Of a stretch of DNA of 64,000 nt, positions 7,184-10,583 are shown piece by piece. Each line of letters begins with the position of its first letter. Within the stretch, counting starts at the first letter, position 1. Origin of the DNA: Escherichia coli (GTDB lineage Bacteria > Pseudomonadota > Gammaproteobacteria > Enterobacterales > Enterobacteriaceae). Below the pieces are notes generated by a model, which did not search any database, was not told the DNA's origin, and saw only the letters and a list, made by a program, of their open reading frames with translations. The stretch lies in assembly GCF_011045215.1 (NCBI RefSeq), contig NZ_CP049201.1; one strand, written 5' to 3'. The translations under genes and the position numbers were made by a program.

Positions 7184-9463
7184 ATGGATGACCAGTTAAA
7201 ACAAAGTGCACTTGATTTCCATGAATTTCCAGTTCCAGGGAAAATCCAGGTTTCTCCAACCAAGCCTCTGGCAACGCAGCGCGATCTGGCGCTGGCCTAC
7301 TCACCAGGCGTTGCCGCACCTTGTCTTGAAATCGAAAAAGACCCGTTAAAAGCCTACAAATATACCGCGCGCGGTAACCTGGTGGCGGTGATCTCTAACG
7401 GTACGGCGGTGCTGGGGTTAGGCAACATTGGCGCGCTGGCAGGCAAACCGGTGATGGAAGGCAAGGGCGTTCTGTTTAAGAAATTCGCCGGGATTGATGT
7501 ATTTGACATTGAAGTTGATGAACTCGACCCGGACAAATTTATTGAAGTCGTCGCTGCGCTCGAACCGACCTTCGGCGGAATCAACCTCGAAGACATTAAA
7601 GCGCCAGAATGTTTCTATATTGAACAGAAACTGCGCGAGCGGATGAATATTCCGGTATTCCACGACGATCAGCACGGCACGGCAATTATCAGCACTGCCG
7701 CCATCCTCAACGGCTTGCGCGTGGTGGAGAAAAACATCTCTGACGTGCGGATGGTGGTTTCCGGCGCGGGCGCCGCAGCAATCGCCTGTATGAACCTGCT
7801 GGTAGCGCTGGGTCTGCAAAAACATAACATCGTGGTTTGCGATTCAAAAGGCGTTATCTATCAGGGCCGTGAGCCAAACATGGCGGAAACCAAAGCCGCA
7901 TATGCGGTGGTGGATGACGGCAAACGTACCCTCGATGATGTAATTGAAGGCGCGGATATTTTCCTCGGCTGTTCCGGCCCGAAAGTGCTGACCCAGGAAA
8001 TGGTGAAGAAAATGGCTCGGGCACCAATGATCCTGGCGCTGGCGAACCCGGAACCGGAAATTCTGCCGCCGCTGGCGAAAGAAGTGCGTCCGGATGCCAT
8101 CATCTGTACCGGCCGTTCCGACTACCCGAACCAGGTGAACAACGTCCTTTGCTTCCCGTTCATCTTCCGTGGCGCGCTGGACGTTGGCGCAACCGCCATC
8201 AACGAAGAGATGAAACTGGCGGCGGTACGCGCGATTGCAGAACTGGCCCATGCGGAACAGAGTGAAGTGGTGGCTTCAGCGTATGGCGATCAGGATCTGA
8301 GCTTTGGTCCGGAATACATCATTCCAAAACCGTTTGATCCGCGCTTGATCGTTAAGATCGCTCCTGCGGTCGCGAAAGCGGCGATGGAGTCGGGCGTGGC
8401 GACGCGTCCGATTGCTGATTTCGACGTATACATCGACAAGCTGACTGAGTTCGTTTACAAAACCAACCTGTTTATGAAGCCGATTTTCTCCCAGGCTCGC
8501 AAAGCGCCGAAGCGCGTAGTTCTGCCGGAAGGGGAAGAGGCGCGCGTTCTGCATGCCACTCAGGAACTGGTAACGCTGGGACTGGCGAAACCGATCCTTA
8601 TCGGTCGTCCGAACGTGATCGAAATGCGCATTCAGAAACTGGGCTTGCAGATCAAAGCGGGCGTTGATTTTGAGATCGTCAATAACGAATCCGATCCGCG
8701 CTTTAAAGAGTACTGGACCGAATACTTCCAGATCATGAAGCGTCGCGGCGTCACTCAGGAACAGGCGCAGCGGGCGTTGATCAGTAACCCGACAGTGATC
8801 GGCGCGATCATGGTTCAGCGTGGCGAAGCCGATGCAATGATTTGCGGTACGGTGGGTGATTATCATGAACATTTTAGCGTGGTGAAAAATGTCTTTGGTT
8901 ATCGCGATGGCGTTCACACCGCAGGTGCCATGAACGCGCTGCTGCTGCCGAGTGGTAACACCTTTATTGCCGATACATATGTTAATGATGAACCGGATGC
9001 AGAAGAGCTGGCGGAGATCACCTTGATGGCGGCAGAAACTGTCCGTCGTTTTGGTATTGAGCCGCGCGTTGCTTTGTTGTCGCACTCCAACTTTGGTTCT
9101 TCTGACTGCCCGTCGTCGAGCAAAATGCGTCAGGCGCTGGAACTGGTCAGGGAACGTGCACCAGAACTGATGATTGATGGTGAAATGCACGGCGATGCAG
9201 CGCTGGTGGAAGCGATTCGCAACGACCGTATGCCGGACAGCTCTTTGAAAGGTTCCGCCAATATTCTGGTGATGCCGAACATGGAAGCTGCCCGCATTAG
9301 TTACAACTTACTGCGTGTTTCCAGCTCGGAAGGTGTGACTGTCGGCCCGGTGCTGATGGGTGTGGCGAAACCGGTTCACGTGTTAACGCCGATCGCATCG
9401 GTGCGTCGTATCGTCAACATGGTGGCGCTGGCCGTGGTAGAAGCGCAAACCCAACCGCTGTAA
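7184..9463 (+). CDS. maeB: NADP-dependent malic enzyme (malic enzyme domain fused to PTA-like domain)
   Basis: 759-aa ORF; N-terminal malic enzyme domain and C-terminal phosphotransacetylase-like domain; divergent from talA. Confidence 0.9.
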
Positions 9464-9755
9464 TTTTTTTTAACTCTCACGCTTACCCTGAATATTCAGG
9501 GTAAGCAGTTTAGCTGCAATATATTAGTAAAGCTTATTACTGAGTTTGCGAATAATAAAAAAAAGCAGTCTATATAATATCTCGATATTATTTTATTTAT
9601 ATTCATGCGTTGCATATGAAAGTTTATGCACCACAGCGAATATCTCTCCATTCTTAGTGATCTACCTCACCTTTTAAACGCGCTTGCCGAATTTTGTTAT
9701 TTACTCTGACGAAAAATTGTCACGATACACGCAAGTTTTTCACAGGCGGCGACTC
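9464..9755 (+). promoter_or_regulatory. AT-rich eut operon upstream control region (expected EutR-dependent promoter)
   Basis: 292-bp AT-rich non-coding stretch directly upstream of eutS; contains 26-bp perfect palindrome at 9481-9506; promoter assignment is from established knowledge of eut regulation, not a mapped site. Confidence 0.4.
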
Positions 9756-10091
9756 ATGGATAAAGAACGCATCATTCAGGAATTTGTGCCCGGCAAACAG
9801 GTCACGCTGGCGCATCTCATCGCGCATCCCGGCGAGGAACTGGCGAAGAAAATCGGCGTTCCGGATGCTGGCGCAATCGGCATTATGACGCTAACTCCTG
9901 GCGAAACGGCGATGATCGCCGGTGATTTAGCATTGAAAGCCGCCGATGTGCATATCGGTTTTCTCGACCGTTTTAGCGGCGCGCTGGTGATTTATGGCTC
10001 GGTGGGTGCAGTAGAAGAAGCGTTATCACAAACCGTCAGTGGTTTAGGTCGCTTATTAAATTATACGCTTTGTGAAATGACCAAAAGTTAA
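9756..10091 (+). CDS. eutS: Ethanolamine utilisation microcompartment shell protein EutS
   Basis: 111-aa product from internal ATG ([10 protein letters not shown]...); BMC-domain protein; first gene of eut cluster. Confidence 0.85.
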
Positions 10092-10103
10092 TACGAGGCA
10101 TTC

Positions 10104-10583
10104 ATGAAACGAATTGCGTTTGTGGGTACCGTCGGGGCAGGGAAAACAACGTTATTTAATGCGTTGCAGGGGAATTATACCCTCGCCAGAAAAACACAGG
10201 CCGTGGAATTTAATGATAAGGGCGATATTGATACGCCGGGTGAATATTTTAGCCATCCCCGCTGGTATCACGCCTTAATTACCACGCTACAGGATGTGGA
10301 CATGCTGATCTATGTCCACGGCGCGAATGACCCGGAAAGTCGGTTGCCTGCCGGGTTGCTGGATATTGGCGTCAGCAAACGGCAAATCGCCGTCATCAGT
10401 AAAACGGACATGCCAGATGCTGACGTCGCCGCAACGCGAAAGTTATTGCTTGAGACTGGCTTCGAAGAGCCGATTTTCGAGCTAAACAGCCACGACCCGC
10501 AAAGCGTGCAGCAACTGGTGGATTATCTGGCATCTCTCACCAAACAGGAGGAAGCAGGTGAAAAAACTCATCACAGCGAATGA
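10104..10583 (+). CDS. eutP: Ethanolamine utilisation GTPase/acetate kinase-like protein EutP
   Basis: 159-aa ORF with P-loop GTVGAGKTT; eut operon synteny. Confidence 0.85.
   Translation: MKRIAFVGTVGAGKTTLFNALQGNYTLARKTQAVEFNDKGDIDTPGEYFSHPRWYHALITTLQDVDMLIYVHGANDPESRLPAGLLDIGVSKRQIAVISKTDMPDADVAATRKLLLETGFEEPIFELNSHDPQSVQQLVDYLASLTKQEEAGEKTHHSE

Follow-up and report, generated by a model that had tools for sequence, protein, structure and literature searches.

A perfect palindrome between maeB and eutS of Escherichia coli as the probable DNA image of a maeB mRNA 3′ stem-loop

In Escherichia coli, maeB and the eut operon are transcribed in the same direction, and a long perfect palindrome stands in the short spacer that separates them. 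Does this palindrome serve the eut operon as a regulator-binding site, or does it belong to the transcript of maeB? We addressed this question in a K-12-like stretch of 64,000 nucleotides, hereafter referred to as ‘the window’, using sequence comparison, RNA folding, and published transcript data. Taken together, the evidence makes it probable that the palindrome encodes a stem-loop at the 3′ end of maeB mRNA. This stem-loop would terminate transcription intrinsically but leakily, with Rho as a backup, and would probably also block exonucleases.

The palindrome and its variation in E. coli

The maeB gene (759 amino acids; plus strand, 7184–9463, with a TAA stop codon at 9461–9463) was delimited from the list of open reading frames and the RefSeq annotation of matching E. 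coli regions, and eutS (plus strand, 9756–10091), the first gene of the eut operon, from its translation and annotation. The 292-nt spacer between them contains the palindrome GCTTACCCTGAAT|ATTCAGGGTAAGC at 9481–9506, recognized by sequence, folding, and conservation. It is a perfect dyad of 26 bp whose arms (9481–9493 and 9494–9506, 13 nt each) meet without a spacer. A preliminary description of this DNA had reported the palindrome at the right position, a claim that the sequence confirms, but it drew the symmetry axis between 14 and 12 nt instead of 13 and 13 and counted 18 nt from the maeB stop codon, where the distance is 17 nt (9464–9480). The palindrome lies 250 nt 5′ of the eutS ATG at 9756.

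No palindrome in the window is longer, and the runner-up has arms of 8 nt; arms of at least 13 nt arose in one of 300 simulations with a composition-matched first-order Markov model. No second copy was found in the window when up to three mismatches were allowed. A scan of 9000–10200 against Rfam, at E-values up to 10, gave chance-level matches only and no mobile-element signature. In MG1655, the palindrome corresponds to 2576055–2576080 on the minus strand, and the spacer of the window differs from that of MG1655 by one base. The RefSeq annotation holds no feature under exact matches to the 28-mer described below, and no match to the palindrome sequence was found in the papers searched. A dispersed extragenic repeat (REP/BIME, ERIC, or MITEs) was considered and rejected, given one copy in the window, a median of one per genome, and no Rfam match.

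The maeB–eutS spacer was found in 5423 of 5426 complete E. coli genomes, and an exact 28-mer (AC plus the palindrome) in 5243 of the 5426 (about 97%), at a median of one and a maximum of two places per genome. Of roughly 5281 genomes whose spacer is intact, about 38 at most are without this exact 28-mer. The preliminary description had named absence upstream of eut in other E. coli as evidence against a functional site; the palindrome is, on the contrary, present in nearly all of them, a distribution that could not discriminate between the two readings, operator and terminator hairpin. The rare genomes without an intact spacer include an IS1-mediated deletion. In E. coli 19AR0656 (NZ_CM132277.1; 3085–3850 of locus L008), IS1B lies directly after maeB, and the entire spacer with its hairpin is deleted together with eutS and a 5′ portion of eutP, so that the eut promoter is lost.

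Variation was scored in 18 loci, comprising eight divergent lineages and ten further Escherichia loci. Within E. coli, none of the 26 stem columns varies, as against 27 of 166 (16%) in the flanks; at the flank rate, such invariance has a P of about 0.01. The flanking changes fall in the stop-to-hairpin spacer at 9464–9480 on the plus strand (3 of 18 columns) and at 9507–9654 (24 of 148), and the eut control block discussed below varies in 4% of its columns. The T8 run at 9464–9471, directly after the stop codon, is an allele of the K-12 lineage, derived by a 1-bp deletion from TTCTTTTTT; most other E. coli have TTCTTTTTT or TTCATTCTT. It was correctly noted earlier that a T-run precedes, rather than follows, the palindrome here, but as an argument on function this carries no weight because the run is strain-specific. 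A long-range pairing of T8 with A8 at 9556–9564 was rejected on the same ground. The K-12 lineage also has a derived A at 9507. Most strains have a G there, whose pairing with C9480 extends the palindrome to 28 bp; the G-to-A change drops the outermost C–G pair, so that 26 bp remain. Locus L095 carries both K-12-lineage changes.

The tail that follows the stem is equally diverse. Among E. coli, it reads GTTTAGC, GTTTGGC, GTTTTCC, GTTTTAC, or GTCCAGC, with GTTAAGT in locus L011. The tail alleles distinguished here are AGTTTAG in K-12 (A9507), GGTTTAG in common E. coli, GGTTTTCC, GGTCCAG in locus L092, where the U-tract is lost (GGTCCAGC), and GATTTTTAT in E. whittamii. The stem is invariant while flanks and tail drift, and we therefore place selection on the stem, not on the neighboring T-runs.

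The maeB-sense hairpin, its tail, and Rho

In the maeB sense, RNA of the palindrome folds into an 11-bp stem with six G–C pairs and an AUAU loop, at about −18 to −19.5 kcal/mol. Compared with shuffled sequences, the energy has z = −3.6 on the plus strand and −4.5 on the minus strand; either strand folds. A stable, G+C-containing sense stem-loop shortly after the stop codon is what a canonical terminator has, but the U-rich tract of ~7–8 nt is missing, since the tail AGTTTAGC has four T in its best 8-nt window. The plus-strand tail after the hairpin is AGUUUAGCUG, with a degenerate U-tract (AGTTTAGCTG) at 9507–9516, and a simple terminator scan made no call on either strand, in agreement with the preliminary view that this is not a canonical maeB terminator on this strand. 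A bidirectional or antisense terminator was rejected, given a minus-strand tail (GUGAGAGUUAAAAAAAA) without a U-tract, the negative scan, and the plus-strand orientation of both flanking genes. Tail T-scores, which are approximate and use a weighting scheme after d’Aubenton-Carafa, are 0.94 in the window, 1.56 in most E. coli, 2.0–2.65 in three Escherichia loci whose hairpin is called as a terminator, and 5.0–5.6 in canonical neighbors.

These neighbors emerged from a scan of genome contigs with the MaeB C-terminus, which yielded 80 loci, 22 of them with maeB followed by eutS. All 22 have a stable hairpin starting 14–20 nt past the maeB stop codon. A canonical T-tract follows it in 17 of the 22, and 15 of these are built on a different, GC-rich stem (GGCGCGGG...CCCGCGCC TTTTTATTT). 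In Citrobacter, K. oxytoca, Yokenella, and Pseudocitrobacter, a G+C-rich stem followed by TTTTTATTT makes a textbook intrinsic terminator; S. enterica subsp. arizonae has the same terminator type after maeB, with no eutS found within its locus. The hairpin of the window is like the canonical terminators of Citrobacter, K. oxytoca, Yokenella, and S. enterica subsp. arizonae in strand, 14–20 nt offset, and stability, but it has only four T in eight tail positions, is rejected by the scan, has G–C pairs at 6 of 11 stem positions, and has a stem unrelated to the GGCGCGGG type. By its position, the palindrome hairpin corresponds to the canonical intrinsic terminator that follows maeB in related genera.

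Closer to E. coli, three other Escherichia species retain the E. coli-type stem. The orthologous hairpin is called as a terminator, on the plus strand only, in E. whittamii (ATTTTTAT), Escherichia sp. MOD1-EC7003 (GTTTTATT), and E. coli 19AR0646 (GTTTTCCT); the terminator-called loci with an E. coli-type hairpin are L001, L009, and L010.

Published data from MG1655 describe what becomes of transcripts in the spacer. Adams et al. 2021 (PMC7815308, Supplementary file 2) reported a Rho termination region, classed as ‘orphan’, on the minus strand of MG1655 at 2575860, which maps to about position 9701 of the window, 55 nt 5′ of the eutS start codon. The region has a Rho score of 5.5 (p = 1.5e-13; PMC7815308). 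In MG1655 DirectRNA-seq, 161 reads were counted in the 800 nt upstream and 21 in the 800 nt downstream without bicyclomycin (BCM), and 195 and 140, respectively, with BCM (PMC7815308). From these counts, the downstream/upstream ratio rises from 0.13 to 0.72 with BCM, a coarse measure with its 800-nt windows. In K-12 grown in LB, Rho therefore keeps read-through into eut low. The additional downstream reads seen with BCM could start at a promoter in the AT-rich spacer rather than represent read-through from maeB. The curated Term-seq 3′-end table of the same study (LB at OD 0.4, LB at OD 2.0, and M63 glucose; PMC7815308) lists no end for maeB/eutS or for MG1655 2575800–2576199, and the TERMITe and SMRT-Cappable-seq supplements contain no maeB entry; maeB may be too weakly expressed in the Term-seq media to yield a 3′ end.

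A known class of mRNA ends offers a close parallel. Stable 3′ stem-loops without U-tracts were described as the steady-state ends of Rho-terminated mRNAs, where they act as exonuclease barriers (Dar & Sorek 2018, NAR, PMC6061677). The same authors suggested that poor U-tracts mark leaky intrinsic terminators with Rho backup, and proposed that intrinsic and Rho-dependent termination interchange in evolution via loss of U content (PMC6061677). The maeB hairpin shares with these stem-loops its place just past the stop codon, a terminator-like energy and geometry, reduced U content after the stem, and the lack of an upstream A-tract. The maeB spacer similarly shows BCM-sensitive read-through, as far as the coarse literature data tell, and a C>G skew further downstream. 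Two features are unlike the class: the maeB hairpin has no steady-state 3′ end in the Term-seq data examined, and its C>G skew starts about 100 nt past the stem, not at once. In 78-nt windows, the C/G ratio is 0.75 at 9507–9584 (0.75–0.9 just after the stem) and reaches 1.75–2.1 at 9607–9709, a plus-strand stretch that we consider, from its composition, a candidate Rho-loading region.

Could the hairpin terminate fully without Rho despite its poor U-tract, for example with the help of NusA/NusG, the Rho signal then belonging to another transcript that starts downstream? The long stable stem, with UUU one or two nt past its base, would suit such a terminator, one more U is enough to pass the canonical criteria in other lineages, and the AT-rich spacer, to which an RNAP-sigmaS genomic-SELEX peak is assigned, could hold the required promoter. 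The tail is nevertheless far from that of the canonical neighbors (T-score 0.94–1.56 versus 5.0–5.6) and is not conserved, being lost in L092; the rise of the read ratio with BCM and the lack of a Term-seq 3′ end at the hairpin likewise speak against termination by the hairpin alone, which we regard as improbable. A leaky hairpin backed by Rho is the explanation we prefer.

RNA stem versus DNA operator

A perfect dyad of 26–28 bp without a spacer, strongly conserved in E. coli relative to its flanks and located upstream of an inducible operon, also invites comparison with a DNA operator, i.e., the site of a dimeric transcription factor that regulates eut, or of a roadblock or insulator protein between maeB and eut. 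Such symmetry is more than an RNA hairpin requires, and the TGAAT/ATTCA-like half-sites resemble those of palindromic operators such as ARG boxes and the sites of the Cra/LacI family. The central spacing, however, is presumably 4 and 2 bp too short for an ARG box and a Cra site, respectively, and the ARG box, Cra, LexA, and IclR consensus sites were all rejected because their half-site spacing does not appear to fit. The palindrome further differs from these operators in that its symmetry is lost in sister species and that it has no link to the eut promoter block.

In the sister species, stem changes are one-sided (C–G to U–G, U–A to U–G, and A–U to G–U), leaving G–U pairs on the plus strand where the minus strand would have a C–A mismatch. 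Eight of the 12 stem pairs are invariant and three vary on one side (four cells), with 98.6% of cells paired. No compensatory double substitutions occur in the stem alignment, and covariation alone is no proof of structure. The sense hairpin is more stable than the antisense hairpin at L009 (−17.9 versus −8.5 kcal/mol) and L010 (−20.7 versus −16.3 kcal/mol). At both loci, the center of the palindrome is 1 nt longer, and loop length and sequence change freely. With three events all in one direction (roughly P = 0.125, or 1 in 8), the sense-strand bias is suggestive but statistically weak. In these alignments, the sister-species changes preserve the maeB-sense RNA stem yet spoil the symmetry of the DNA dyad: neither dyad symmetry nor half-site spacing is maintained in L009 and L010. 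A hairpin loop tolerates a change at the center, while an operator with fixed half-sites, which the extra nucleotide misaligns, would not; this counts for RNA over an operator.

The conserved control region of eut lies elsewhere. A whole-spacer alignment of ten taxa revealed a cross-genus conserved block at about 9652–9735 on the plus strand (TTAGTGATCTACCTCAC...TTGCCGAATTTTGTTATTTACTC...TTGTCACGAT) that is kept in all ten taxa, whereas the palindrome is found in Escherichia only. In Citrobacter, Klebsiella, Yokenella, and Pseudocitrobacter, the palindrome is absent, although the eut control block is conserved. The block starts about 150 bp 3′ of the palindrome and excludes it. At its head is a CRP-like site (AGTGATCTACCTCACC, 9656–9671), nearly invariant in the ten taxa, a predicted site that resembles the CRP consensus TGTGA-N6-TCACA. 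Our guess is that eut transcription starts near 9736 from a weak −10-like GATACA, which would put the CRP-like site near −72.5, in a class I position. By conservation, the head of the eut control region is the 9652–9735 block and not the palindrome, so that the earlier placement of the palindrome ‘at the eut promoter boundary’ was loose: it lies in the spacer, 250 nt from the eutS ATG and about 150 nt 5′ of the part shared across genera. The sole spacer difference from MG1655 falls within the block, at 9733, which is C in the window and A in MG1655 and seven other aligned E. coli (cacgCaag versus cacgAaag). The same column is C in three sister Escherichia loci, and the position is just 5′ of the eutS ribosome-binding region.

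EutR is reported to bind the eutS promoter in EHEC and Salmonella, with a putative site in Klebsiella (PMC4643982, PMC11101070). Genera with EutR at the eutS promoter lack the palindrome, which would therefore not be the shared EutR site. The palindrome is missing from every other genus that has the maeB–eutS order and the conserved eut block, the expected site of action of EutR and CRP, and it is not co-conserved with the eut promoter across species. It stands about 150 bp upstream of the block, has no related sites in the window, and has no counterpart in the literature searched. An operator, then, is very unlikely. The regulator-binding site offered in the preliminary description accordingly finds little favor: the palindrome is absent from genera with the eut block, its sister-species changes are asymmetric, and a canonical maeB terminator takes its place elsewhere. 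A stem-loop at the 3′ end of maeB mRNA remains our preferred explanation.

Between the palindrome and the control block lies an AT-rich, Escherichia-specific spacer (9507–9654), distinguished by composition and variability. These about 150 nt have 28% G+C, are the most variable part of the spacer in E. coli, and are 56 nt shorter in L011. They are absent in other genera, where the canonical maeB terminator abuts the eut block. Short open reading frames (9496–9651, minus strand; 9546–9677, plus strand) fall in this most variable, AT-rich part. Shimada et al. 2017 (PMC5493296) assigned an in vitro RNAP-sigmaS genomic-SELEX peak of intensity 11.3 to the eutS<maeB spacer. Its position, MG1655 2574144 in the numbering of that paper, converts to about 9439 of the window. 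The peak may reflect a promoter, or binding of RNAP to AT-rich DNA, close to the end of maeB or within the spacer. Elsewhere, the maeB–eutS spacer is also long in Citrobacter sp. MGH106 (L028) and C. amalonaticus S646 (L032), at 284 and 370 nt, respectively, versus about 160 nt. At about 1669–1700 of these two loci, extra DNA begins right after the GC hairpin and removes the T-tract, in parallel to the Escherichia layout.

A non-functional relic or DNA-level structure (an old insertion end, a cruciform site, or a decayed terminator without a present role) would fit the restriction to Escherichia of both the hairpin and the 150-nt AT-rich spacer next to it, as well as the extra DNA that likewise starts right after the hairpin in L028 and L032, but it is slightly less likely still than an operator, as the 0 of 26 variable columns against 16% in the flanks and the RNA stem retained across four Escherichia species point to ongoing selection, and nothing marks the palindrome as a dispersed repeat, an Rfam family, or a mobile element.

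Proposed organization of the maeB–eut boundary

The leaky maeB 3′ hairpin can be rationalized as follows. In Escherichia, the stem would be under selection, while the U-tract is short and drifts. In the K-12-type allele, with the tail AGUUUAGC and the closing C–G pair lost, the hairpin would be leaky at best. Transcripts that pass it would enter about 150 nt of untranslated AT-rich spacer and then the C>G stretch, where 9607–9709 is the candidate loading region from which Rho would stop read-through before or within the eutS start. The stem-loop itself would be a barrier that halts 3′–5′ exonucleases and thereby sets and stabilizes the 3′ end of maeB mRNA. Together, hairpin and Rho would shield the inducible eut promoter from transcripts that read through from maeB. 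The transcriptional insulator proposed in the preliminary description thus survives in spirit, as the palindrome sits where maeB transcription must be insulated from eut. Rho-sensitive read-through in the spacer is established by the published data; that the read-through RNA comes from maeB, that transcription ends partially at the hairpin, and that the stem protects the 3′ end are what we infer. Along the same lines, MaeB protein levels were unchanged on eut induction (PMC11334477), so maeB and eut are regulated separately.

What most limits this explanation is that the Term-seq table shows no 3′ end at the hairpin, and that the BCM signal is coarse and comes from transcripts of uncertain origin. 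The perfect, spacer-less symmetry also exceeds what an RNA hairpin needs and counts against our explanation. The hairpin is unannotated, yet it is an ordinary member of a well-described class.

A further, tentative idea, which we hold to be possible but on balance doubtful, is that the maeB hairpin is a terminator switching from intrinsic to Rho-dependent within one genus, with the stem kept and the U-tract decaying. The U-tract forms a gradient: E. whittamii has a strong one and some E. coli lineages an intermediate one, whereas that of K-12 is weak and L092 has lost it. If the switch is true, read-through from maeB, an acetate-induced gene, into eut may be conditional on Rho activity or translation state and may differ among E. 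coli lineages.

This assignment matters mainly for annotation, since the hairpin might otherwise be taken for an operator of the eut operon, which is of medical interest; with the palindrome filed as a maeB 3′ hairpin, the true eut control region would lie some 150 bp farther downstream. It would also account for the absence of cross-talk between two head-to-tail units on one strand, a gene that is constitutive or induced by acetate and an inducible operon of 17 genes. Finally, the series of tail alleles on an invariant stem may provide a natural test set for the interconversion of intrinsic and Rho-dependent termination via gain and loss of the U-tract.
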